Virus record (IMG/VR): IMGVR_UViG_3300033070_001497
Span: 1-64,000 of that record
Reading direction: 5' to 3' (one strand)
Length of the DNA stretch: 64,000 nt
From: a virus
Lineage: Duplodnaviria; Caudoviricetes
A model generated the notes under the pieces. It saw only the letters and a list, made by a program, of their open reading frames with translations, did no database searches and was not told the origin of the DNA. Below, in pieces: positions 2,085 to 21,445 of the stretch; position 1 is the first letter of the stretch, and every line of letters begins with the position of its first letter. The position numbers and the translations under genes are program-made.

Positions 2085-2129
2085 CCCAGTATCTATTGGG
2101 ATTTGGTACTCCGCTTGGCCAGAAATTGT

Positions 2130-2137
2130 TACGTTTG
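2130..2137 (+). promoter_or_regulatory. Bacteroidota-type sigma70 -7 element (TACGTTTG)
   Basis: Matches TAnnTTTG. Also found at 3082, 9599, 14625, 22830, 23651 and 32876, always intergenic. Confidence 0.65.
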
Positions 2138-2160
2138 CCACGTCGATACATAGAAGTACC

Positions 2161-2586
2161 ATGCGGTAGATACACCACAAGCTGACATCGGTCTCACGGA
2201 GAGACCTCACCCCTGGGTACCAGGCGGTTCAATCGGCACATGCACTCATCGATTTCGGCTTCCAACACCCGGAAGCTTACACTGAGTGGCACCGATCCAA
2301 CTACATCGCGATGCTCTCAGTTGCCAATGAGTCAGAACTCCTGGCACTCTTGGATAAGGCCCAGGCGAGAGGCCTCCGGGCCACTGGCTTCCATGAGCCT
2401 GACCTGGACGGGCAACTCACAGCCATCTGCATAGAGCCTTGCGAAGCAACTTCGAAGCTCGTCTCGAATCTCCCACTGCTCCTTCGTGAGCCCAAACCGG
2501 TCCATTCGTCTAGCGGTAAGGCGGCGCTCTCTAAAAGCGAAAACACGGGTTCGAATCCCGTATGGGCCTCAGACTCAAACCCATGA
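2161..2586 (+). CDS. peptidyl-tRNA hydrolase, Pth2-like, with in-frame TAG at codon 3
   Basis: ATG CGG TAG ATA CAC CAC AAG CTG... reads MR*IHHKLTSVSRRDLTPGYQAVQSAHA...FHEPDLDGQLTAICIEP...LVSNLPLL, a Pth2 signature. The track ORF from 2311 lacks the RRDL..G..AVQSAHA segment. Confidence 0.8.
2499..2569 (+). tRNA. amber suppressor tRNA (anticodon CTA) on a Glu/Gln-like body
   Basis: Acceptor GGTCCAT/ATGGGCC, D-stem GTCT/AGGC, anticodon arm CGCT-CTCTAAA-AGCG (CTA at 2531-2533), T-arm ACGGG-TTCGAAT-CCCGT. Confidence 0.88.
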
Positions 2587-4272: not shown

Positions 4273-6333
4273 ATGGAAGACACACTGGTGAAAGTCCGGA
4301 GATTCTCTAACCTGAACGAGCTCAGGCTCTCCGATCTACCCGCGTACAGATACGTGCTGATCAATCCATCGGAATCGCCGACGTGCATCTACAAGGCCAT
4401 ACCTGGCATCGAGAAGGTCGCCCGGTTCGTGGCCAGGATCAACAACTGGAACAGGACTCCGTCTCTTGACATCGACCTCTGGTTGCTGGACGATGATGGG
4501 ATGATCAGGTCAGCGACCGGCGGGCCCATCGAGCTCGATCTCCCGAAATTCACGATGCTCTTCGATCCGAGGGACAAACGCACGAGCAGCCATGTGATCA
4601 GGATAGTCGAAGGCTCGACCGACTTCGACGTTGATCTGTTAGGCAGCTTCATCGAGAAGATGCCGATCAAGGAGACCGCATTCGGCGATTTCTACGTCGA
4701 TGTCTTCGGTTGGAGGATCGATGTGCCCAAGTTCCTTGCCAGCGGTAAGCTGGTCGATTCGTTGCGCTCGTTCTTTGAGATCAGCGGCAAGTGGCAGGAC
4801 CAAGAGCAGATCAGTCGGTACCTCGGTCCGATCCTGATGCCACCGATCAAACCGGATCCGAAGGCTGGGATCACGAAGGCCCTGCTTGCGCTCGAGAAGT
4901 TCTACCAGGCCGAGAAGAGTTCAAGCTCCAAGATCGCTTACAGGGTACTCGTGGATGCCGCGAAGAGGACCATCGGTGGGCTGAAGATCTCGGTCTGCTT
5001 CAATTCGATCTTCTCCCAGGTCACAACACAGGAGCAGTTCAGCGAGAAATGCTCGGAGCTGTCAAAGCTCCTGTTCATGGGTGGCCGGCAGTACTACTGG
5101 ACCGCGGATCAATTCCTGACCAGGGTGGTCGATTCCGATTCGCTCAAGGACGTCAAGAAGTCCGCCATCAAACGCAGGCAGACCGGAGCCTTCAACAAGA
5201 TCATGGCCGACCTCGACTTCATCGAGATCGACAGGGACAAATACCCAAAGACACACGAGGCCGTCTACAACGGCGACATCCCAGTCGGCACCTTCTTCAG
5301 GAAGACCGGCGAGACATACTTCGCCTACAACGACAGCTGGGACCTCTGGGAGGAGATGCTCACGTACCACCATGACATCGCCATCCAGATCGCCAAGGAG
5401 GCCTCATCAAGGAGCACGTACGAGAAGGACCTCCTGTCCTACTTCCAGTTCACCCTCCACACGCTGCCGGAGTACCTTGCCAAGCACACTGGCAAGCCTT
5501 GGACTGGGATACCGAAGGTGGTGAAGAGCGCGAACGAACTTGAGCCGCCAAGTGAGGATCGGCCCGGCACTACCAAGACACGCAGCGCGCTGACTCCGAT
5601 AGTCGACAACGAGAACAACACCGTCACCGTCCCTTACGTGACCATGTCGGTCTACGGCAGGAACACGACCTACTGTTATGGTCTGGACTTCAACGTCCTG
5701 AGGCGAGGCTTCTCTTTCGAAGGAAGCGCAGTGACAAAGGACGTCGAGGAGAAGCTCAACGGCCGTGACGATTATGGCCTCATGTTCTACACGCTGACCG
5801 GATCTGACAGCAACACCGGTTACCCGACCTTCCTCATCATCTTCGAGAGGCTCCATGACTCAACTCGCGTCCACTTCCACAGGACCCACTCGATGAGGTC
5901 CAAACAGGGCGAGAACAACCCAGTCCACAACTGGACCAGGTCAGGGTACAAATGGATGGTCGGCAACGTGGCCTTTGACCGGATCAAGGCCCAACAAGGA
6001 GACCTCGCTTTCGTGGAAATCGACAAAGTGCCAGATCCCGATCCGGACAGGAAGACAGTCGCGTTCGATCCCAACGACGAGAACTACATCGATCCGCGAC
6101 CGCGGTACGTCAACAGCTACGACAGCCACACCTTCGGTGAGAAGGTGCTCTTCTTCCCGTACCTCAAGAAGGACAAACAGAATGTGCTCGGATACGTTAC
6201 GCTGCCGCATGCTGTAGGGCTCACACACAAGGAGCACATGGCCCGCGCCATACCTGCAGGAACGTATGAGATCAGGCAGTGCAAGTCATGGGAAGCCAAC
6301 CCACGAGGCATCTGGAGCTACAGGATCGACTGA
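4273..6333 (+). CDS. large hypothetical protein with a C-terminal QQGD...H..H...IPAGTYEIR (cupin-like) domain
   Basis: 686-aa ORF; C-terminal motif of a small, widespread phage domain. Confidence 0.7.
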   Translation: MEDTLVKVRRFSNLNELRLSDLPAYRYVLINPSESPTCIYKAIPGIEKVARFVARINNWNRTPSLDIDLWLLDDDGMIRSATGGPIELDLPKFTMLFDPRDKRTSSHVIRIVEGSTDFDVDLLGSFIEKMPIKETAFGDFYVDVFGWRIDVPKFLASGKLVDSLRSFFEISGKWQDQEQISRYLGPILMPPIKPDPKAGITKALLALEKFYQAEKSSSSKIAYRVLVDAAKRTIGGLKISVCFNSIFSQVTTQEQFSEKCSELSKLLFMGGRQYYWTADQFLTRVVDSDSLKDVKKSAIKRRQTGAFNKIMADLDFIEIDRDKYPKTHEAVYNGDIPVGTFFRKTGETYFAYNDSWDLWEEMLTYHHDIAIQIAKEASSRSTYEKDLLSYFQFTLHTLPEYLAKHTGKPWTGIPKVVKSANELEPPSEDRPGTTKTRSALTPIVDNENNTVTVPYVTMSVYGRNTTYCYGLDFNVLRRGFSFEGSAVTKDVEEKLNGRDDYGLMFYTLTGSDSNTGYPTFLIIFERLHDSTRVHFHRTHSMRSKQGENNPVHNWTRSGYKWMVGNVAFDRIKAQQGDLAFVEIDKVPDPDPDRKTVAFDPNDENYIDPRPRYVNSYDSHTFGEKVLFFPYLKKDKQNVLGYVTLPHAVGLTHKEHMARAIPAGTYEIRQCKSWEANPRGIWSYRID

Positions 6334-12433: not shown

Positions 12434-14446
12434 ATGGAAAGACCGTACCTGATGGGCCTCAACGAGGCCCAACTCGAGGCTGTGCTCAACACCGAAGGGC
12501 CAAACATGGTCATAGCTGGCCCGGGCTCAGGCAAGACGCGTGTTCTCACGACGCGCATCGCACACCTCGTGGCAGAGGGCGTGGACCCGTTCAGGATCCT
12601 GGCCCTGACATTCACGAACAAGGCTGCCAAGGAGATGAAGTCGAGGATCTCGAAGCTTCTAGAAGGATCGACGAGCTCTGACTCCGTGTGGGCCGGCACG
12701 TTCCACAGCGTCTTCGCTAGGGCCCTGCGCCTGAACGCTGAGCGCATCGGCTACACCCCAGATTTCTCGATCTACGACTCAGACGACACTCGGTCGTTGA
12801 TCAAATCGGTTGTCAAGTCGATGAGGTTGGACGAGAAGCTCTACAAGCCCGCACTCATCCAGAACAGGATAAGCCAGGCCAAGAACGCGATGATAGGGCC
12901 GTTGGAGTACGCCGAGAATGAGCGCAGGACTGGGTTCGACGAAGAGAGCGGCAGGCCAAGGATCGCCGACATCTACGAGGAGTATGCGTTCCGTTGCTTC
13001 AAGTCGAACGCCATGGACTTCGATGACCTGCTCTTCAACATGGCCCTCATGCTCAGGGACCACGACGACATCCGAGAGCAGTACCAACAGAGGTTCAGCC
13101 ATGTCCTAGTCGATGAGTACCAGGACACGAACGCTGCCCAGTTCGACATCGTGCGCCAGCTAGTCGAGAAGCACAGGAACATCACCGTAGTTGGAGACGA
13201 CAGCCAGAGCATCTACTCCTTCCGAGGAGCCAAGGTCGGCAACATGCTCCGCTTCCTGGAGGATTACCCAGACCACAAGCTGCTCAAGCTCGAGCAGAAC
13301 TACCGCAGCATCGGCGCCATCGTAGACGCGGCCAACTCCGTCATCACGAACAACAAGGACCGGATCGATAAGACCATCTGGACCGAGAATTCGGCTGGTG
13401 ATAGGATCTCGATACACCTCGCGAACAGCGAACAGGACGAGGCCGACTACGTAGCGCGCTGCATAGCAGCCATCGCGAAGGGAAAGGGAGCCAAGCCGTC
13501 TGAATTCGCCGTCCTCTACCGCACGAACGCACAGAGCCGCTCGATAGAGACAGCCCTCTCAGCCAAGGCCATCCCTTACCGGGTGTACGGCGGCATCAGC
13601 TTCTACCAGCGCAAGGAGGTGAAGGACCTCATCGCGTACATGCGGCTCGCTTGCAACCCGAACGACGAGGAGGCTCTGAAACGAGTGATCAACTACCCAA
13701 CACGAGGCATCGGCAATTCGACCGTCGATCGGCTGTTGGCCATAAGCGGCACGCGGAAACTCGGGATCTGGGACGCCATGGACCAGCACCTATTCGACGC
13801 TGGCCTGGGAGATTCCACCCTGAAGAAAGTGAGCGACTTCATCGCGAAGATCAAGGGCTTCCAGGCCGTGGCCAAGGGCCCAGCTTCGGATGCAGTCGAC
13901 CACATCGCCGATTCGTCTGGCGTGATGTCCGAGCTCGGATCTGACCTCAGCCCTGAGGGCCAGGAAAGGCACGACAACGCACAGCAGCTCGTATCGGCCG
14001 CCAAGGAGTTCAATGAGCGGAGGCCAAGCGCGCCTCTCGCAGATTTCCTTGCTGAGATCGCTCTTGTGACCGGATCGGATTCCTCGGACGATGGAACGGT
14101 CAGCCTCATGACGGCCCATGCATCCAAGGGACTGGAATTCCCGTACGTCTTCATCATCGGTCTCGAGGAAGGGCTCTTCCCGAACTCGCTTGGGATGTCT
14201 ACCCGAGAGGACCTCGAGGAGGAGCGCCGGCTCTTCTACGTCGCATTGACCAGGGCCGAGCGCTACGTCTCGCTCGTCCACTCGCAGTCCAGGTTCCGTT
14301 GGGGCCAGGTCGATTACCCTGCGCCGAGCAGGTTCCTCCGTGAAGTGGGCGACGGCGTCACCCGGACACAGAGCCCTCCGAGGCCCAAGCCAGCTACCAC
14401 GCCTCCCTGGGCCCGAGCATTGAAGGACAGAGATGATTCTTTCTGA
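12434..14446 (+). CDS. uvrD: UvrD/PcrA superfamily-1 DNA helicase
   Basis: AGPGSGKT, LTFTNKAA, VDEYQDTN, VGDDSQSIYSFRGA, LEQNYRS, TAHASKGLEF, EERRLFYVALTRA. Confidence 0.93.
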   Translation: MERPYLMGLNEAQLEAVLNTEGPNMVIAGPGSGKTRVLTTRIAHLVAEGVDPFRILALTFTNKAAKEMKSRISKLLEGSTSSDSVWAGTFHSVFARALRLNAERIGYTPDFSIYDSDDTRSLIKSVVKSMRLDEKLYKPALIQNRISQAKNAMIGPLEYAENERRTGFDEESGRPRIADIYEEYAFRCFKSNAMDFDDLLFNMALMLRDHDDIREQYQQRFSHVLVDEYQDTNAAQFDIVRQLVEKHRNITVVGDDSQSIYSFRGAKVGNMLRFLEDYPDHKLLKLEQNYRSIGAIVDAANSVITNNKDRIDKTIWTENSAGDRISIHLANSEQDEADYVARCIAAIAKGKGAKPSEFAVLYRTNAQSRSIETALSAKAIPYRVYGGISFYQRKEVKDLIAYMRLACNPNDEEALKRVINYPTRGIGNSTVDRLLAISGTRKLGIWDAMDQHLFDAGLGDSTLKKVSDFIAKIKGFQAVAKGPASDAVDHIADSSGVMSELGSDLSPEGQERHDNAQQLVSAAKEFNERRPSAPLADFLAEIALVTGSDSSDDGTVSLMTAHASKGLEFPYVFIIGLEEGLFPNSLGMSTREDLEEERRLFYVALTRAERYVSLVHSQSRFRWGQVDYPAPSRFLREVGDGVTRTQSPPRPKPATTPPWARALKDRDDSF

Positions 14447-14664
14447 AGCGACCTACAAGAAATGTGAGTGCTGTGGCAGCATCGGTGAGCAGAAGTCCAC
14501 GGTTGCGATCACTGCAAGGAGGAGTTCAGGCTCGGCGAGTCTGACAACCCGCTCAGAATGTCCGTGTTCTACGAGCTCGGGCGCAAAAGTTTTCGCCTAG
14601 CGGTACCAAGTTCGAAAGAATTGTTACATTTGCACCCTCAACGACCAAGATACATAGAAACCAA

Positions 14665-14800
14665 GTGAAGAACCAGACGACATACACCTTGCCAATGGGA
14701 CCGCGCGACCTCGGTTGCCTGGATCCCGAGAAGGCCGTCTGAAGAAGCACTAACACATAGCACTTCGGACGGCTTCCCAAACAAGGAAGCCGTTCGGCTT
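14665..14800 (+). promoter_or_regulatory. leader peptide (GTG 14665 to TGA 14742) with terminator/antiterminator attenuator
   Basis: Hairpin CGGACGGCTTCC/GGAAGCCGTTCG (14766-14796). Its 5' arm can instead pair with GCCGTCTGAAG, which spans the leader stop codon. Confidence 0.6.
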
Positions 14801-14811
14801 TAGTAACGTTC

Positions 14812-14824
14812 GTTCATTGACATA
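14812..14824 (+). promoter_or_regulatory. boxA-like antitermination element
   Basis: GTTCATTGACATA just before the first tRNA; resembles rrn boxA. Confidence 0.55.
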
Positions 14825-14835
14825 CTGTCTCGCAA

Positions 14836-14907
14836 GGCCTGATAGTTTAACTGGTAGAACGCTCGCATCGTAAGCGAGTGGTGTCGATTCAACTTCGACT
14901 CTGGCCT
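14836..14907 (+). tRNA. tRNA-Thr(CGT)
   Basis: Anticodon arm CTCGC-ATCGTAA-GCGAG; one acceptor mismatch. Confidence 0.75.
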
Positions 14908-14943
14908 CACAGTAACTTGGATACATAGGTTCAAACCGGTATC

Positions 14944-15603
14944 ATGTTACGGCAATTGATCTGTTCGAAGTGTAATTCCTTGTTTGAGATTGATGTGAAG
15001 GAATCGGCATGGCGGTTCGGAGATTACCGTAGGACATGTTCATCGAAATGTGCTAGAAGCAGAATGCTTTCGTCAGAATCGAAAGAGAAGAAACGGAAGT
15101 CAATGACCAAGAATCTTGGTCCCTATTGTCGGCTCAGTTCGATGGCAAAAAAGTGCAAGTGGTGTAAAAGACCGCATCGATCAGCAGATCGAAAATACTG
15201 CAGCGATCAGTGCTTGCTGAAAGCACAGAGTAAATCTGCAACAGATATTAACCTTGGTGGAAATCGAAACCGTTATGCTAAAGGCTGGTATGATTCACCG
15301 ATCGCCGGTAAAGTCTACTTGGAAAGCTCTTGGGAACTTGAATTAGCTAAGATTCTTGATGAGCTGGTCATTCAATGGATTCGTCCAGATTCAATGAATT
15401 GGATCGATGACAATGGAGTCACACATAAGTATTTTGCTGACTTCTATCTGATGGAATCTAATCTCTACCTGGATCCTAAAGCACCAGCTTTCCAAGCCAG
15501 AGACTCAAGAAAAATAGAATTGGTATCATCACAGAACAATGTCATAGTTCTTGTTCTAGGAAAGGATCAAATCACCAAGGAGTATATTCGAACGATAGCG
15601 TGA
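14944..15603 (+). mobile_element. free-standing PD-(D/E)xK (TnsA-like) homing endonuclease with Zn-finger N-terminus
   Basis: ESSWE...YFADFYL...YLDPK and CxxC motifs; visibly AT-richer than its flanks; inserted in the tRNA array. Confidence 0.65.
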
Positions 15604-15834
15604 GGGAAAGAGGACCCACCGCTGTTGGCTCGTCCAACAGAGGAAGTTCGCGGCATCCATCTAGGAGGAAGGAGACGCAAGTCGCTCGCACTTCCGCAAC
15701 ATGGGATGCAACCGAAACAGTGGCTAGGCTGGGTGCCTAGAGGCCGGAAAACGCCGCAAGGCGAAACAGCCACGGGTACGGGCTCAGACAAATGGTGGGA
15801 TAAACCAGAACCGCGGCTACGCTCGCCCTCGCGC
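15598..15834 (+). ncRNA. rnpB: minimal RNase P RNA
   Basis: P1 GCGTGAGGG/CCCTCGCGC, P2 CCCACCG/TGGTGGG, P3 CTGTTGG/CCAACAG, GAGGAA-G(T)TCGCGG pairing with AGAA-CCGCGGCT (P4 with bulged U), AGACAAATG, and L15 GGTA. Confidence 0.8.
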
Positions 15835-15847
15835 ATATTACAATACC

Positions 15848-16388
15848 AAGGGGTCACACTGCACGACCAACTACGGATAAACATGGACGTCGAAAGACGC
15901 GAATGGAGTGGGATTCGAAGCCCACAAAACCGACCCCTGACAAGGTGCCCAACTGCAACACAAACCAGCTCTTCCAAAGCAGAGGTCCGGTGTTCGAATC
16001 CCGGTGGGTCCGCTACTAAACAAACGGACTCATAGTGTAATGGCTAGCACGCTTAAAGCGGCACCTGCCCACAAGGTACTCAACCGCATTCAACTTGTCC
16101 CGCCACAACTGGGACAAAACAGATGGGTACCTGACAAGGCGTCACACAGCAATCCAAACGCAACATTGAGATGCAAACCCATGACGCCTGATAAGGTGAC
16201 AATCAGCAAGACACGCAACGAAAACGAGGAGTTCTAGGTCCGAATCCTGGCTGGCCCACTAAAAACGTCAATGGGCCGGTGGAGTAACGGTAACTCGCCC
16301 CGATGCAAAAGTCACCTGACAGGGCATCTAACAGCAGTTCTATCTTGACCGCGGCTTCGGCCGTTGATGAGACCAAAACAGATGCCCG
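15848..16388 (+). repeat. array of six stem-closed RNA units (AGG-stem...CAGCA/CTGCA...AAA-stem-CCTG)
   Basis: Units at 15848-15939, 15942-16067, 16073-16133, 16136-16190, 16193-16318 and 16321-16388, with covarying closing stems. Confidence 0.75.
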
Positions 16389-16393
16389 TATTC

Positions 16394-16466
16394 GCTTCCA
16401 TAGTTCAGTAGGTGAGAACAGGTCCTTGGTAAGGATCAGACAAGAGTTCGATTCTCTTTGGGAGCT
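16394..16466 (+). tRNA. tRNA-Thr(GGT)
   Basis: GGTCC-TTGGTAA-GGATC; canonical arms. Confidence 0.88.
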
Positions 16467-16469
16467 CAA

Positions 16470-16682
16470 ATGAAACTAGTCAACGAATTACCGAATCTGT
16501 TCGAACGAGCACAGTTCTTTGTTCGGGCTCTTCGAGATGACACTCGATTGTCGAACGAGGAGATCGAGATGGAAGCTGTCTCTGAAATCTGTGACGAGCT
16601 GCTAGATTCGATCGATCTGACAGATCGTAAAGAGCTCAAGAGAGCTCTACGGAACATGTACTTCCTAGGCCAACTCAAATGA
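16470..16682 (+). CDS. hypothetical protein
   Basis: 70-aa ORF between the tRNA and the SLOG gene. Confidence 0.6.
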   Translation: MKLVNELPNLFERAQFFVRALRDDTRLSNEEIEMEAVSEICDELLDSIDLTDRKELKRALRNMYFLGQLK

Positions 16683-17035
16683 AGCTCATAGTCGCTGGTG
16701 GTCGGGATTTCAACGATTGGGATCTGCTGAACAGAACACTGACGAAGATCCTCGAGAGGACCCAGATCAAAGAGGTGATCAGTGGAAAGGCCAAGGGAGC
16801 TGACACGCTGGGTGAGAGATTCGCTTCGGAGAATGGGATCCCAGTGAAGGAATTTCCAGCGGACTGGATCAAATACGGCAAACGGGCTGGGTACCTCAGG
16901 AACAAACAGATGGCCAATCACGGAGAAGCGTTGGTGGCCTTCTGGGATGGCAAGAGCCCAGGAACAAAGATGATGATCGACCTCGCCAAGGAGCTTGGTC
17001 TCAAGGTGCTGGTGGTAAAATACATGGCTGGGTAG
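16679..17035 (+). CDS. SLOG-superfamily (DUF2493/YspA-like) protein
   Basis: IVAGGRDF, ISGKAKGADTLG, AGYLRNKQM, AFWDGKSPGT. Confidence 0.8.
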   Translation: MKLIVAGGRDFNDWDLLNRTLTKILERTQIKEVISGKAKGADTLGERFASENGIPVKEFPADWIKYGKRAGYLRNKQMANHGEALVAFWDGKSPGTKMMIDLAKELGLKVLVVKYMAG

Positions 17036-17112
17036 CTCAAGCTTAATGAGAGCGACTTGCGGAAGGTACCCTCTACTGCAAGGAGATGTCCGAGAGTGGC
17101 GGACCCTGGCCC
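17026..17112 (+). ncRNA. tRNA-like RNA with extended anticodon arm and aberrant T-loop
   Basis: Acceptor GGCTGGG/CCTGGCC, D-stem GCTC/GAGC, CTTGCGG/CTGCAAG arm, GTCCG-AGAGTGG-CGGAC. Confidence 0.5.
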
Positions 17113-17119
17113 ACCGAAT

Positions 17120-17191
17120 TCCAGGTTAGTTTAGTCGGTAGAACTCCGCCCTTGTAACGCGGAAGCGACAGTTCGATTCTGTCACTTGGAT
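17120..17191 (+). tRNA. tRNA-Thr(TGT)
   Basis: Loop CTTGTAA; acceptor TCCAGGT/ACTTGGA; C-C mismatch at the base of the anticodon stem. Confidence 0.7.
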
Positions 17192-17201
17192 CAAGAAGAA
17201 T

Positions 17202-17272
17202 GCTTCGGTAGTATAGTGGTAGTACGCTAGATTGCCAGTCTAGGGGTGAGGGTTCGATTCCCTTCCGGAGCT
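17202..17272 (+). tRNA. tRNA-Gly(GCC)
   Basis: CTAGA-TTGCCAG-TCTAG. Confidence 0.88.
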
Positions 17273-17277
17273 CAAAT

Positions 17278-17351
17278 GGTGACGTGTCCGAGTGGTCTAA
17301 GGACTGTGTCTGCAAAACACATGCTCAGCGGTTCGAATCCGCTCGTCACCT
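17278..17351 (+). tRNA. tRNA-Cys(GCA)
   Basis: TGTGT-CTGCAAA-ACACA. Confidence 0.88.
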
Positions 17352-17356
17352 CAACA

Positions 17357-17526
17357 TCGTCGGTAAGGAAACTGGGTACAACCCGCGGATAGGTGACCGT
17401 CGCTGGGAACGTAACAACGGAAATCGTGCGAAATCATTTGGGCAAAGTCGACTCACCCCATTTGGTAGTACCACGGCTCACCGAAAGCAAGCGCCAGCTA
17501 GGATCGTTCGATTCGATCACCGACGA
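17357..17526 (+). ncRNA. 170-nt RNA closed by a tRNA acceptor/T-arm minihelix
   Basis: TCGTCGGT/ACCGACGA plus GATCG-TTCGATT-CGATC. Confidence 0.5.
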
Positions 17527-17643
17527 CGATTAGGAGAGCGATGCCCTAACAAGGTTCGGGATGTGGATTGGCTTTGGGGTTAACGACAGGGACCTCCACA
17601 TTCGATCAGATCCGATGAGATACGACATCGGAACGTCGCAAAC

Positions 17644-17717
17644 GCTCTGGTGGCGAAACTGGAAAACGCTCTCCCCTTAAAGCGGAGCTACTGTCGGTTC
17701 GAATCCGGCTCAGAGTA
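17644..17717 (+). tRNA. tRNA-Leu(TAA)-like, short variable arm
   Basis: Leu-type D-loop GGCGAAACTGGAAAACGC; loop centred on TAA; no long variable arm. Confidence 0.65.
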
Positions 17718-17722
17718 CAAAT

Positions 17723-17807
17723 GCCCAGCTGGTGAAATGGAAGCCACGTGCGCCTTAGGAGCGCATGCCTCGGAAGAGGCGTCTCGGTTCGAGTCCGAGG
17801 TTGGGTA
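17723..17807 (+). tRNA. tRNA-Leu(TAG)
   Basis: TGCGC-CTTAGGA-GCGCA; long variable arm. Confidence 0.88.
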
Positions 17808-17832
17808 CCGCTGTTAGGGATACATAGCCTCA

Positions 17833-18486
17833 ATGGCTTACAAAGATCCCAAGAAGAGGTTCTGCTTCGTCTACAAGACAACGAACCTCATCAACCAGAA
17901 GTACTACATCGGATGTCATTGTACGTACAAACTCGATGATGGGTACTTAGGAAGTGGAATGAGAATTCGAAGATCGATCAAAAAGTACGGCAAGCAAAAT
18001 TTCAAGCTTGAAGTTCTTGAATTCTTCGAAAGCCGAGAAGAAGCATTGGCTCGAGAGAAAGAATTGATCACTGAAGAGATCTTAAAAGATCCCTTGAACA
18101 TGAACATCCATCCTGGCGGATTAGGCGGTGGCGGATTTGCACTAATGTCAATTGAAAAACGGCGTGAGGCTAATAAACGTGGAGCTCAGACTCAACTAAA
18201 GAAACGTTGGTCTAATCCAGCATCACATCAAGCTCAAAGCCAGTTAATGACCAAGCTCTTGACATCGGGTAAAATTAAAAGGATCGATTGGACTGGCAAG
18301 AAACATTCAAACCAAACGAAAGACAAAATACGAAGCTCTGTTCTTGGAAAGCAAAGTGGATCCATGAACTCACAGTTTGGAAGTTGTTGGATAACCAAAG
18401 ACAAACAGTCGATGAAGATCCGGAAAGACGATATCCAGTCCTATTTAGATCTTGGTTGGCAATTGGGTCGTAAGATGAAACAGTAA
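17833..18486 (+). mobile_element. GIY-YIG (Seg-like) homing endonuclease with NUMOD3 tail
   Basis: FVYKTTNLINQKYYIG..H...DGYLGSG; GKKHS...; AT-richer; located in the tRNA array. Confidence 0.85.
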
Positions 18487-18488
18487 GC

Positions 18489-18572
18489 GGGGCTATGGAG
18501 GAACTGGTAGACTCAAACGGCTGAGAACCGTTGCACTTAATGTGCGTCCGGGTTCGAGTCCCGGTAGCCCTA
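18489..18572 (+). tRNA. tRNA-Leu(GAG)
   Basis: AACGG-CTGAGAA-CCGTT; long variable arm. Confidence 0.88.
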
Positions 18573-18595
18573 CAAAGAATCTGGTAGTGGAAGAC

Positions 18596-18664
18596 TTGGC
18601 AGTAGCTTAACCAAGAGCGCCGGCCTACGAAGCCAGAGGTACGGAGTTGATTCCGTCTGTCAGA
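18596..18664 (+). tRNA. degenerate tRNA-Arg(ACG)
   Basis: CCGGC-CTACGAA-GCCAG; D-loop lacks GG; T-loop non-canonical. Confidence 0.5.
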
Positions 18665-18717
18665 GTTGAAGCGATCAGATTAACTCGATCCGAGGTTCGA
18701 AACTCGATCGAGACCTT

Positions 18718-18789
18718 GGCCGGTTGGTGTAATGGATAGCATCCGACGCTTCGAACGTCGGGATACGGGTTCGAGTCCTGTACTGGTCA
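18718..18789 (+). tRNA. tRNA-Arg(TCG)
   Basis: CGACG-CTTCGAA-CGTCG. Confidence 0.88.
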
Positions 18790-18795
18790 CAACAT

Positions 18796-18869
18796 CGAGG
18801 AGTAGCTTAATGGAGAGCTCTCGCCCTGGAAGCGAGAAGGCGTCCGTTCGACCCGGATCTCCTCGACCA
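18796..18869 (+). tRNA. tRNA-Pro(TGG), C33
   Basis: CTCGC-CCTGGAA-GCGAG; encoded CCA. Confidence 0.82.
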
Positions 18870-18873
18870 ATTT

Positions 18874-18947
18874 CGGAGAGTAGCTTAATTGGCGAAAGTC
18901 CTTGACCGGGAGTCAAGTGGATGTGCGTTCGACTCGCATCTCTCCGA
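18874..18947 (+). tRNA. tRNA-Pro(GGG), C33
   Basis: CTTGA-CCGGGAG-TCAAG. Confidence 0.8.
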
Positions 18948-18952
18948 CGAAT

Positions 18953-19024
18953 GCCGACGTGGTCCAATGGCCAAGACACGTCCCTCATAAGGATGAGACA
19001 ACAGTTCGATTCTGTTCGTCGGTA
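18953..19024 (+). tRNA. tRNA with CAT anticodon (elongator Met or Ile2)
   Basis: CGTCC-CTCATAA-GGATG; lacks the initiator GGG/CCC stem. Confidence 0.82.
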
Positions 19025-19032
19025 CGAACTTT

Positions 19033-19108
19033 GGTCCCGGAAGCTGCTGTTCGTGGCTGCCCGACTGTCTATCGGGTGAGGTGGGTTAGATTCCCATCGG
19101 GACCGCCA
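19033..19108 (+). tRNA. tRNA-Asp(GTC), atypical D-arm
   Basis: CCCGA-CTGTCTA-TCGGG; GCCA end. Confidence 0.65.
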
Positions 19109-19122
19109 AAGGTGAAGTCAAG

Positions 19123-19237
19123 TCACAGGTTTTGCGACGCTGAGAAGCGATAGCGGAAATAGTTCAACCCGGCCAGAACGCCGGCCAGAATGCCGGAAAC
19201 CGCGGTTCAAATCCCGATCTGCGAGTGGAACCTGTGA
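19123..19237 (+). ncRNA. tRNA-like module nested in an outer stem
   Basis: TCACAGGTT/AACCTGTGA encloses a D-arm, a CCGGC-CAGAAT-GCCGG arm (6-nt loop) and a TTCAAAT T-loop. Confidence 0.45.
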
Positions 19238-19282
19238 TGAGATGGAGCGCCGGTCTGTGGTCGCGAACTCAGGTCGGAATAC

Positions 19283-19354
19283 GGCTCATTGGTATAGTGG
19301 TTAACATATCGCACTGTCACTGCGAAGTCTCGGGTTCGATTCCCGAATGAGCCG
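19283..19354 (+). tRNA. tRNA-Asp(GTC)
   Basis: TCGCA-CTGTCAC-TGCGA. Confidence 0.88.
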
Positions 19355-19399
19355 CCGTCCTAGTACCCATGATACAGTTGAACAGCAAAGAACACGATC

Positions 19400-19650
19400 C
19401 ATAGCAGCTGGAAATGCTAGCGGCAGAGGCGAGCCGATCCAGCAAAAAATGAAAGCCCATCAAGATCGAGGATCTACCAGATTCAAACGCTTGCATGCTC
19501 AAGGCAAGATCAAGTACAACACATTCGCTGGCCGAAAGCACAATCCAGAAGCCATTGAACGAATGAAATTGGCTCATGCCGGCCAACAAACAGAATCCAG
19601 AAATTCCCAGTTTGGATCCTGTTGGGTACAGAAGGATGGCACTTCAAAAT
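19400..19650 (+). pseudogene. remnant of a GIY-YIG/NUMOD3 homing endonuclease C-terminus
   Basis: GKIKYNTFAGRKH...NSQFGSCWVQKDG parallels GKIKRIDWTGKKH...NSQFGSCWITKD of 17833-18486; no nuclease domain. Boundaries approximate. Confidence 0.65.
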
Positions 19651-19651
19651 T

Positions 19652-19722
19652 GCCTTGCAGGTGTTTTGGCTGCATGTCTGCCTTCCAAGCAGAGGGAACC
19701 GGTTCGATTCCGGTGCAGGGCT
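19652..19722 (+). tRNA. tRNA-Gly(TCC)
   Basis: TCTGC-CTTCCAA-GCAGA. Confidence 0.82.
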
Positions 19723-19736
19723 TTCATGACGAAATT

Positions 19737-19821
19737 GCCCAGGTGGCGGAATGGCAGACGCGTGCGTTTCAGGAACGCATGTCCTAGCGGCGTGAGGGTT
19801 TGAGTCTCTCCTTGGGCACCA
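19737..19821 (+). tRNA. tRNA-Leu(CAG)
   Basis: TGCGT-TTCAGGA-ACGCA; encoded CCA. Confidence 0.88.
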
Positions 19822-19844
19822 GGTGGCGGTGAATAGATACCGCC

Positions 19845-20186
19845 ATGAAAGACATCCTCTCGTTCAACGACTTCAAGGCTGAGCGCCTGAACGAATCGGT
19901 GACCCTCAGCAAGAGGAGCGCACCGCGCGACATTACCAAGGACAGCAAATCCATCGCCGGACGGGTCAAGAACCTGATCGGCGAGATGGGCCAGATGTCC
20001 TATGAGGACCTCAAGAATGCGTTCAGGAACATCGTCACCGACGAGGAAGGGACGAATGCCTCGCCTGAGACCCGCGCAAAGTGGATCCAAGCCCTGGCAA
20101 AGTCCACCGGCAAGGTGAGCCTGATGCAGACCATCACGAACATCTACCTCGGTGGCGCCGGCTGGAAGCTGGACCGAGGAGCCTAA
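19845..20186 (+). CDS. hypothetical protein, putative internal head protein
   Basis: AATAGATA box upstream; N-terminus MKDILSFNDFKAERLNES. Confidence 0.7.
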   Translation: MKDILSFNDFKAERLNESVTLSKRSAPRDITKDSKSIAGRVKNLIGEMGQMSYEDLKNAFRNIVTDEEGTNASPETRAKWIQALAKSTGKVSLMQTITNIYLGGAGWKLDRGA

Positions 20187-20187
20187 A

Positions 20188-20272
20188 GCCCGGGTGGCGA
20201 AAAGGTAGACGCGTCGGTTTCAAAAACCGATGCCACGAAAGTGGCGTGTGGGTTCGAGTCCCACTTCGGGCA
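20188..20272 (+). tRNA. tRNA-Leu(CAA)
   Basis: TCGGT-TTCAAAA-ACCGA; long variable arm. Confidence 0.88.
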
Positions 20273-20336
20273 CAATGTGATCTGGCAAGCCACGGCCAAC
20301 CTCGTTGAATTCTGGCATAGGATCTGAGAGCCGTTT

Positions 20337-20726
20337 ATGGCAGCATCAGACATGAAGACCGAAGTCAAGAGGAGCAAACTTGGTGGCCGAGGAGTGTTCG
20401 CCACGAAGGACATCAGGAAAGGCGAGGTGATCGAGAGGGCCGAGATCATCAGGTTCAAGCGCGGCGATAACAAGCACCTCGAACAGACGGCCATCCTCGA
20501 CTACTACTTCGACGATGGCAAGCGCGGCACCTACCTGGCATTGGGCAACGGTTCCCTGTACAACCACGCCGATGATCCGAACTGCTTCGTTCTGATGAAC
20601 ACGGATTCCAAGGATCGGTTGGTCTACATGGCCAGGAAGCCGATCAAGAAGGGCGAGGAGATCACATTCCACTACTACGGCTTGCCTGGCACCAAGTCAG
20701 AGATGTGGTTCAAGAAGAAGGAGTAG
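20337..20726 (+). CDS. SET-domain lysine methyltransferase
   Basis: GRGVFATKDIRKGE...SLYNHADDPN...ARKPIKKGEEITFHY. Confidence 0.88.
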   Translation: MAASDMKTEVKRSKLGGRGVFATKDIRKGEVIERAEIIRFKRGDNKHLEQTAILDYYFDDGKRGTYLALGNGSLYNHADDPNCFVLMNTDSKDRLVYMARKPIKKGEEITFHYYGLPGTKSEMWFKKKE

Positions 20727-20798
20727 CGAGGTGTAGCTTAATGGCAGAGCGCACGCTTCGGGAGCGTGTAGGCGTCCGTTCGACCCGGATCACCTCGA
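20727..20798 (+). tRNA. tRNA-Pro(CGG)
   Basis: CACGC-TTCGGGA-GCGTG. Confidence 0.85.
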
Positions 20799-20806
20799 CT
20801 GATTAT

Positions 20807-20878
20807 GGTTCCATAGTTCAATGGATAGAATAGTGGCCCGCGAAGCCTCTGATTCGGGTTCGAATCCCGATGGAACTT
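20807..20878 (+). tRNA. tRNA-Arg(GCG), C33
   Basis: GTGGC-CCGCGAA-GCCTC; A20-type D-loop GGATA. Confidence 0.72.
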
Positions 20879-20980
20879 CAAATGCGAGACAGTATGTCCC
20901 TGAAAATAGATAGGAGACATGAGATAACCAGGGCATAGAGTCGTAGGATCTGCGCCAGAAACGAAGCAACAGGAAGCGCC

Positions 20981-21445
20981 ATGAAAAACAGGAAGTTCAA
21001 ATCCCTTGGCACGTACAAGGAAGTGGACCTGATCCCTTACCTCAAGGAGAAACTCGCCGAGAGGGACGACATCAAGCTCTACATCGGCACCGACAGCCAG
21101 AACGTGAAGCGCAAGACGGTCTACGCCGTCGTGATCGTGCTGCACTACGGCAACAACGGTGGCCACGTCATCTACTCGAGGATCGAGGTCCCACGGATCC
21201 GCGACATGTTCACTAAGCTCTGGAGGGAAGTCGAGGACTCGATCGCCCTCGCAAAGTACCTCGTCGAGAACGGGATCATGGAGCCGACCTACATCGACAT
21301 CGACTTCAACCCTGACCCGAAGTACGATTCCAACACGATCCTGAGGGCAGCCCTCGGTTACGTCGAGGCATCTGGCTTCAAGCCTAGGTCGAAGCCTGAC
21401 GCTATGGCCGCTTCACACGTCGCTGACCACATCGTGAACTCGTAG
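20981..21445 (+). CDS. RNase H-like YkuK (DUF458) protein
   Basis: LYIGTDSQ...KLWREVEDS...IDID...KPDAMAASHVAD. Confidence 0.8.
   Translation: MKNRKFKSLGTYKEVDLIPYLKEKLAERDDIKLYIGTDSQNVKRKTVYAVVIVLHYGNNGGHVIYSRIEVPRIRDMFTKLWREVEDSIALAKYLVENGIMEPTYIDIDFNPDPKYDSNTILRAALGYVEASGFKPRSKPDAMAASHVADHIVNS

Follow-up and report, generated by a model that had tools for sequence, protein, structure and literature searches.

Genomic Setting of the Leader Element

The window analysed here is the first 64 kb of a GC-rich (~55%) IMG/VR virus contig of 109 kb, the completeness of which is put at ~38% by CheckV. In its baseplate wedge protein, this phage shares 31-40% identity with Lak phages and with the huge phages LR756500-504, and 50-60% identity with a few short IMG/VR contigs, which are its closest baseplate kin. 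Downstream of a UvrD-type helicase gene, a leader element comprising a short ORF and four RNA segments that can pair in alternative ways lies between a Bacteroidota-type promoter box and the opening gene of a tRNA array (Table 1).

Table 1. Positions of the leader element, the tRNA array and neighbouring features (window coordinates, except for the last row)
Feature	Position	Strand	Remarks
UvrD-type helicase gene	12434-14446		5' neighbour of the leader element
Small ORF	14433-14600		Between the UvrD-type gene and the leader element
Promoter box with Bacteroidota-type -7 element (putative)	14619-14633	+	TACATTTG at 14625-14632
GATACATA box, member of the DATA[G/C]ATA gene-start motif	14649-14656	+	8 nt before the leader GTG
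Leader ORF	14665-14742	+	GTG start, 25 codons, TGA stop; frame translation
Segment 1	14674-14693	+	14674-79 pairs with 14736-41 and 14691-93 with 14733-35; spans three Thr codons
Roster codons 5-21	14677-14727	+	16 of 17 read by tRNAs of the downstream array
Internal hairpin within the ORF	14697-14727	+	-16.7 kcal/mol alone; present in all folds
Segment 2, antiterminator 5' strand	14732-14744	+	Holds the stop codon (14740-42)
Segment 3, shared strand	14763-14777	+	Pairs with segment 2 or segment 4
Segment 4 (14785-97), 3' arm of the terminator-like hairpin, with C and three U	14785-14801	+
tRNA array, 20 genes	14836-20879	+	First gene, Thr(CGT), at 14836; last gene, Arg(GCG), at 20807-20879; ARAGORN, Rfam
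Endonuclease-like ORFs in the array	14944-15603 and 17833-18486
RNase P-like RNA	15604-15828	+	Rfam RNaseP_arch, 31.8 bits (E ~1e-7); gathering score 84
Twentieth array tRNA, Arg, anticodon ACG	18596-18664	+	Rfam only (34 bits); missed by ARAGORN
Leader units of a related contig (L176)	5115-5280, 8465-8626, 11031-11186		One per tRNA block

ARAGORN finds 19 tRNAs in the array, to which Rfam adds one, and ORFs of the HNH-like, GIY-YIG, SLOG-domain and SET-domain types are interspersed among them. In the initial annotation, the locus was described as the head of a tRNA/RNase P operon. The RNase P part of this description is not confirmed, as the corresponding RNA matches the Rfam model only below its gathering score; the match spans the whole model and aligns the conserved core stretches, and most of the specificity domain is missing. 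Further leaders were not seen in the gaps inside the array.

Two stretches within the array (window ~15960-16060 and 16225-16310, + strand) contain tRNA halves in permuted order, i.e., a T-arm and 3' acceptor strand, a linker of 13-14 nt, and then a complementary 5' acceptor strand with the D-arm. After in silico exchange of its two halves, the first unit is recognised by ARAGORN as a tRNA-Gly(TCC) with many choices of the junction; the second unit is ambiguous. These units could be circularly permuted tRNA genes or the remnants of broken tandem copies.

Sequence relatives of the leader stretch were not found in the collections searched (GenBank phages, IMG/VR, and metagenome contigs). A near-match search of the GenBank phages gave no match, and an exact 40-mer of the stretch is absent from IMG/VR. 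With the UvrD-type neighbour as bait, matches among viral and metagenome contigs reached at most 54% identity, and none had adjoining tRNAs. The contigs of the closest baseplate kin are short and do not include the leader/array region, and a SLOG-domain (YAcAr family) bait reached only one low-GC contig, in which the array has no leader.

Promoter Box and Gene-Start Motif

The -7 box of Bacteroidota promoters is TAnnTTTG, refined to TAHHTTTG (PMC6847099, PMC7366714), and TACATTTG conforms to both forms. The proposal of the initial annotation that this sequence is a host promoter thus appears sound, and we treat it as a putative one. Transcription starts 4-5 nt downstream of the Bacteroidota -7 element (PMC6847099), a spacing that would place the start site of the leader transcript at approx. 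14637-14638. A TTTG motif that might serve as the -33 element is not present ~20 nt upstream of the box; in Flavobacterium, the -33 element is reported to be weak or to be lacking altogether (PMC6847099). On the + strand of the contig, all nine TAnnTTTG sequences lie within the first 40 kb, and four of them stand 4-6 nt before long ORFs; TAnnTTTG-like boxes also precede the tRNA arrays of kin huge phages.

The second box, GATACATA, was read at 14649-14656, at the position given in the initial annotation. The motif to which it belongs, DATA[G/C]ATA, occurs 24 times on the + strand and five times on the - strand of the contig, and most copies are followed by a start codon at a distance of 4-8 nt. 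The 15-nt box around TACATTTG, together with GATACATAGAA, recurs exactly at 2124-2155 (the 15-nt twin covers 2124-2138), where GATACATAGAA, at 2145, stands 8 nt before an ATG at 2161, i.e., with the same spacing as that between GATACATA and the leader GTG. A sigma-70 geometry for the two boxes was considered and rejected because the distance between the boxes is not constant, differing by 9 nt from one copy to the other. It is possible that GATACATA is a second, phage-type promoter (with a start at ~14661) or that it forms part of a translation-start region; in either role, it makes 14665 a gene-start-like position.

At four places downstream of the array (22830, 23651, 32876, and 38018, + strand), host-type TAnnTTTG boxes precede the ATG of long ORFs by no more than 4-6 nt. 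Given the known distance of 4-5 nt between the box and the start site, the early mRNAs are predicted to be leaderless. Before late genes, the DATA[G/C]ATA motif is placed with the same 4-nt geometry.

The Leader Frame as a Roster of the Array

In silico translation confirms the 25-codon leader frame that was initially annotated. No start codon precedes the GTG in this frame, the GTG is preceded neither by a Shine-Dalgarno sequence nor by an A at position -3, and the 5' leader would be very short if the phage-type box were the promoter. In growing-transcript folds, the 5' part of the ORF is unpaired.

The codons in the centre of the frame correspond to the tRNAs encoded downstream. Within the 17-codon roster, the matched codons specify Thr (three), Leu (three), Pro (three), Gly (two), Asp (two), Met, Arg, and Cys, and the tRNAs that read them are Thr(CGT), Thr(TGT), Thr(GGT), Leu(CAA), Pro(TGG), Met(CAT), Gly(TCC), and Pro(CGG) in the first half and Arg(GCG), Asp(GTC), Leu(GAG), Gly(GCC), Cys(GCA), Leu(CAG), Asp(GTC), and Pro(GGG) in the second. 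Fourteen of the matches are different exact anticodon complements, and the remaining two rely on G34 wobble. The 16 codons map one-to-one onto 16 tRNA genes, such that even the two Asp codons face two Asp genes; eight amino acids and 15 anticodons are covered, and the tRNAs sampled include those at both ends of the array. The roster omits four array tRNAs, namely Leu(TAA), Leu(TAG), Arg(TCG), and Arg(ACG). The only codon in the roster without a partner is a Tyr codon (a tRNA-Tyr was sought among the array genes, but the additional tRNA detected by Rfam is Arg(ACG), and the rest of the contig has no further tRNAs), and for seven of the leader codons that flank the roster there is no matching tRNA in the contig.

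This correspondence was assessed by counting distinct exact matches in every stop-free 17-codon window in the six frames of the 109-kb contig (135,520 windows). The roster window ranks first with its 14 distinct matches, compared with a mean of ~4 and a maximum of 10 outside the leader, and counts of 11-14 occur only in windows that overlap the leader. With random sets of 18 codons, the maximum was 12 matches in 200,000 draws. Repetitive collagen-like genes have a high total codon match that is made up of few distinct codons. The excess of distinct matches over the maximum elsewhere argues that the frame is a roster of the array rather than a product of chance or of general codon bias. It should be noted that the three leader Thr codons correspond to the first three tRNA genes of the array, all of which are Thr; the Thr cluster by itself was discarded as evidence because it is too weak, being present in 6% of spurious ORFs on the + strand.

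The frequency of such clusters, and of small ORFs in general, is among the points that would suit a locus with no regulation at all, i.e., a promoter with a stable, structured 5' leader that is lost during processing of the first tRNA, with the frame being a chance ORF. The GTG start, the lack of a Shine-Dalgarno sequence, and the absence of conservation support for the leader sequence in the searched collections would also be expected in this case. Nonetheless, such a locus would not be expected to exceed every other window in the number of distinct matching codons, to hold the only switch pair of the contig with a stop codon inside the antiterminator strand, or to have parallel units in a related phage (both described below), and we regard an absence of regulation as improbable.

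Alternative RNA Structures

The 177-nt leader stretch folds with a z-score of -4.2 relative to 200 shuffles. Two competing helices had been proposed in the initial annotation, namely a 12-bp hairpin (14766-77/14785-96) and an 11-bp alternative pairing that covers the leader stop (14734-44/14763-73). Both are present, and both prove longer by one or two base pairs: the hairpin, helix 3:4, extends to 13 bp (14765-77/14785-97; -21.7 kcal/mol), as does the alternative, helix 2:3 (14732-44/14763-75; -19.5 kcal/mol). The folding of alternative structures, which had been suggested as a check, thus recovered two helices of near-equal energy that share 11 bases (14765-75), and additionally revealed a third pairing. 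In this helix, 1:2, the two short stretches of segment 1 pair with segment 2 (14674-79/14736-41 and 14691-93/14733-35; -7.9 kcal/mol) and enclose the internal hairpin, which is possibly a pause hairpin. The Thr codons (14677-88) lie within segment 1 and the stop codon within segment 2. As modelled by folding, the layout is that of the trp leader, with four segments that pair as 1:2, 2:3, and 3:4 and with the weaker 1:2 pairing completing the set.

The contig was scanned on both strands for switch pairs, defined as two successive hairpins with perfect stems (G-U allowed), the first of which overlaps by its 3' arm with the 5' arm of the second. Exactly one such pair was found in the 109 kb, i.e., 2:3 and 3:4. 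In 100 dinucleotide-preserving shuffles of the contig, a switch pair of at least 10 bp appeared in four, and one of at least 12 bp in none.

The GC-rich core of these segments deserves separate consideration, as its octamer occurs four times in alternating orientation and endonuclease-like ORFs lie in the adjacent array. Copies of this kind might be bound by a protein at the DNA level, or might be a scar left by recombination close to homing-endonuclease genes, with no RNA switch involved. However, complementarity extends beyond the core: the parts of segments 2 and 4 outside it pair with different ends of segment 3. Since different flanks are used for 2:3 and 3:4, RNA pairing is indicated rather than a repeated DNA site, which would need no such flanks. 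Moreover, the site overlaps the end of the codon-matched frame. An explanation at the DNA level therefore seems hardly credible.

With regard to the order of folding, growing transcripts form 1:2, then 2:3, and then 1:2 together with 3:4. In the absence of a ribosome, 2:3 is the best fold for transcripts that end at 14774-14790. At equilibrium, 3:4 wins in every case, even when segment 1 is masked, so the choice made by the switch must be kinetic, i.e., a trap, as in trp. When segment 1 is free and segment 4 has been made, 1:2 with 3:4 is ~10 kcal/mol better than 2:3.

These energies bear on the broader role that the initial annotation suggests for the leader, namely that of a general translation gauge in which any block of translation frees the antiterminator irrespective of codon identity, and in which a boxA element loads an antitermination complex. 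The preference for 2:3 in transcripts ending at 14774-14790 suggests that untranslated RNA might indeed read through. In contrast, the advantage of 1:2 with 3:4 when segment 1 is free would work against read-through, and a general gauge leaves the one-to-one codon roster unexplained. The boxA-like element that had been noted after the hairpin was not recovered either, as 14798-14836 contains no match within three mismatches of the E. coli rrn consensus, which may differ from that of the host. The likeness to boxA-Nus antitermination in rrn operons and lambda is accordingly limited to the position upstream of stable-RNA genes. With 16 of the 17 central codons matched to array tRNAs, i.e., with a frame that is a roster of the array's own tRNAs, the sensor appears to be codon specific, and a general gauge of translation is very improbable.

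Putative Termination Signal

The 3:4 hairpin has a strong stem, but its tail consists of a C and three U and is followed by AG. The initial annotation had already called the U-tract weak, and a terminator consensus scan of the + strand agrees, as it leaves the hairpin uncalled because the U-run is too short. Some hairpins elsewhere in the contig have tails of five or six U. A contig-wide survey of hairpins with U-runs was too noisy to define the terminator rules of this phage. As the B. subtilis trp system illustrates, attenuators may be weak terminators that depend on helper factors (PMC3064811).

Outside the window, a 12-bp hairpin (87034-87061) lies after a gp32-like ORF that has an acidic tail (G000, 86054-87061). 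This hairpin is likely a terminator of the weak-U style seen in the leader 3:4 hairpin, with three U inside the stem end.

Given the weak U-run of the leader, it is conceivable that a codon-matched sensor is present but that its output is not intrinsic termination. The alternative helices might instead control Rho access, a long pause, or the cleavage or stability of the precursor, for example by determining whether RNase P or RNase E can reach the region 5' of the first tRNA. The RNase P-like RNA encoded within the array would fit such an output, and the likely terminator after the gp32-like gene, being equally short in its U-run, is also counted on this side. However, a related phage with the same layout has canonical terminators with six U (see below), which makes termination the simplest output here too. 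An output other than termination is thus unlikely.

Leader Units in Related Phages

The RNaseH-like gene located directly after the array (20981-21445) was used as bait for kin phages. It retrieved contigs with proteins of 49-65% identity, most of which have tRNA arrays at the same position. Among these, a 294-kb contig with a GC content of 36% (L176) encodes a 65% identical RNaseH-like protein, and its array is syntenic. This array is divided into three tRNA blocks, and directly before the first tRNA of each block there is a separate unit, consisting of a mini-frame, an overlapping antiterminator, and a canonical terminator. The terminators have stems of 11-13 bp followed by six U, and at the end of each frame there is a strand that pairs with the 5' arm of the terminator.

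The mini-frames are written in the amino acids of the blocks that they precede (background frequencies were computed within the L176 locus). Before the block Phe-Trp-Ile-Val-Ala-Asn-Asp-Asp-Lys-Tyr, 23 of the 31 residues of the frame belong to that set (background ~1%). The frame before Pro-Pro-Arg-Cys has a Cys-Pro-Arg-Pro-x-x-Cys cluster (background 0.2% per 8-residue window), and that before His-Ser-Ser-Arg-Gln-Gln-Thr-Leu-Leu-Leu has 19 matching residues out of 23, including an unbroken run of 17 (background <0.1%).

In both phages, a mini-frame uses the amino acids of the tRNAs that follow, the frame end overlaps an antiterminator, and a hairpin stands directly before the first tRNA. In the GC-rich genome described here, however, a single leader precedes the whole 6-kb array, its frame comes close to a strict rule of one codon per tRNA, and its U-run is weak, whereas L176 has three leaders with canonical terminators. 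The relationship between the L176 units and the present leader is one of analogy and not of homology, yet they occur in the same phage lineage and in the same genomic place. By this analogy, the L176 terminators indicate what the 3:4 hairpin of the leader probably is.

Units of this kind were not evident throughout the kin. The low-GC kin arrays (G006-G011) have TAnnTTTG boxes at their heads and no convincing roster leader before the first tRNA. A 21-codon frame in another contig (L163) was set aside, as by manual count it matches its array of 34 tRNAs only weakly.

A Codon-Matched Attenuator as the Preferred Interpretation

Taken together, the features of the locus are best explained by ribosome-mediated attenuation of the trp/thr/ilv type, in which a codon-matched leader gates transcription of the tRNA array, and we consider this reading likely. 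The phage probably transcribes the array only when the roster codons are decoded slowly. The initial annotation had already suggested that the position of the leader ribosome chooses between antiterminator and terminator, such that slow translation opens the array; the codon roster, the pairing of segment 1, and the layout of L176 lend support to this part of its proposal.

Transcription would start at the host-type promoter (~14637) and perhaps also at the phage-type box (~14661), and the first product would be a 25-codon test frame, the central 17 codons of which sample 16 of the 20 array tRNAs. If all roster codons were decoded quickly, the ribosome would reach the stop codon and cover segment 2 (we infer this coverage from the usual footprint of ~30 nt), so that segments 3 and 4 would pair and the polymerase would stop or be hindered near 14798-14805, before the first tRNA. 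If any of the sampled tRNAs were scarce, the ribosome would stall upstream, over segment 1, and leave segment 2 free. More generally, a ribosome detained on a roster codon that lies before ~14717 would leave segment 2 free while segment 1 is covered or already passed. Free segment 2 would then pair with segment 3 as soon as the latter is made, 3:4 would be blocked, and the array would be transcribed. After read-through, the new phage tRNAs would speed up translation of the test frame and thereby close the loop.

Whether the principle extends to giant phages in general is a more ambitious question. The chances appear evenly balanced that these phages employ closed-loop control of tRNA supply, in which shortage of a single tRNA opens a whole array, and that such leaders form a widespread, unpublished class of attenuators that sense decoding capacity instead of amino-acid supply. 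In this scheme, the shortage could result from codon usage that is ill-matched to the host, from host shut-off, or from defences that cut tRNAs.

Comparison with Known Systems

Leader-peptide attenuation is a textbook mode of control of amino-acid operons. The ilvGMEDA, thr, his, and trp leaders resemble the phage element in having a short frame after the promoter, sensing codons placed over segment 1, mutually exclusive 1:2, 2:3, and 3:4 pairings, and a stop codon located such that a ribosome that has finished translation favours 3:4. In the ilv leader, moreover, several amino acids are sensed by one leader. The phage element differs from these enterobacterial leaders in that its targets are tRNAs, not enzymes, and in that its codons form a nearly non-redundant list, one for each tRNA gene, instead of runs. 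In addition, the signal would be decoding capacity, i.e., the amount or integrity of tRNAs, and not only the supply of amino acids. With respect to structure, the short U-run is the only departure. Rfam leader families gave no match, so there is no sequence homology to known leaders.

T-box riboswitches likewise couple the status of tRNAs to a choice between terminator and antiterminator before translation-related genes. However, a T-box directly binds one uncharged tRNA, does not depend on translation, and has a conserved Stem I and T-box sequence, whereas the phage element has a frame of many codons that is presumably translated. The T-box covariance model of Rfam has no match up to E = 10 in 14300-16500, and a search of 14500-14835 for a T-box or any other Rfam family was likewise fruitless.

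Within the Bacteroidetes, the phylum to which the promoter type points, the Bacteroid-trp motif (Rfam RF01692) is reportedly a candidate leader-peptide attenuator that is found upstream of trp biosynthesis genes and contains Trp codons. The RF01692 model does not match the leader described here. This motif is listed as a cis-regulatory candidate in Bacteroidetes by Weinberg et al. 2010 (PMC2864571). A limited full-text literature search found no published description of leader-peptide attenuation of tRNA genes, and attenuators of this kind seem to be unpublished.

The leader bears on how phage tRNA genes are regulated and on why phages carry them at all. If the attenuator reading is correct, the array is an on-demand, self-limiting supply that is tuned to the speed of decoding, and phage tRNAs are directly linked to codon mismatch and to host defences that target tRNAs. 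Classical attenuation would then extend from amino-acid operons to stable-RNA genes, and would do so in Bacteroidota-type systems, for which little is known about the coupling of transcription and translation. The design of one codon per tRNA would also represent a compact natural sensor of the tRNA pool that could be reused as a reporter.

Further Arrangements near tRNA Genes

Several other arrangements were seen that touch on the same subject. In one contig (L180, ~5483-5810), a canonical terminator comes after a 48-codon frame in which each of the 20 amino acids is represented, and beyond this terminator a TAnnTTTG box stands ~45 nt before an array of 16 tRNAs. The frame may serve as a pan-amino-acid leader, with a second promoter located downstream of it. 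In two contigs, a tmRNA lies directly before the tRNA array (L168, 3856-4275, in the kin huge phage G014; L183, 4631-5009).

Within the window itself, the region 2124-2570 (+ strand) contains the twin of the promoter cassette, with the 15-nt box and GATACATAGAA, followed after 8 nt by ATG-CGG-TAG. Downstream of this three-codon frame, at 2499-2570 (+ strand), there is a tRNA with the anticodon CTA, i.e., a reader of amber codons. This arrangement may be another codon-sensing unit or a sign of TAG recoding.
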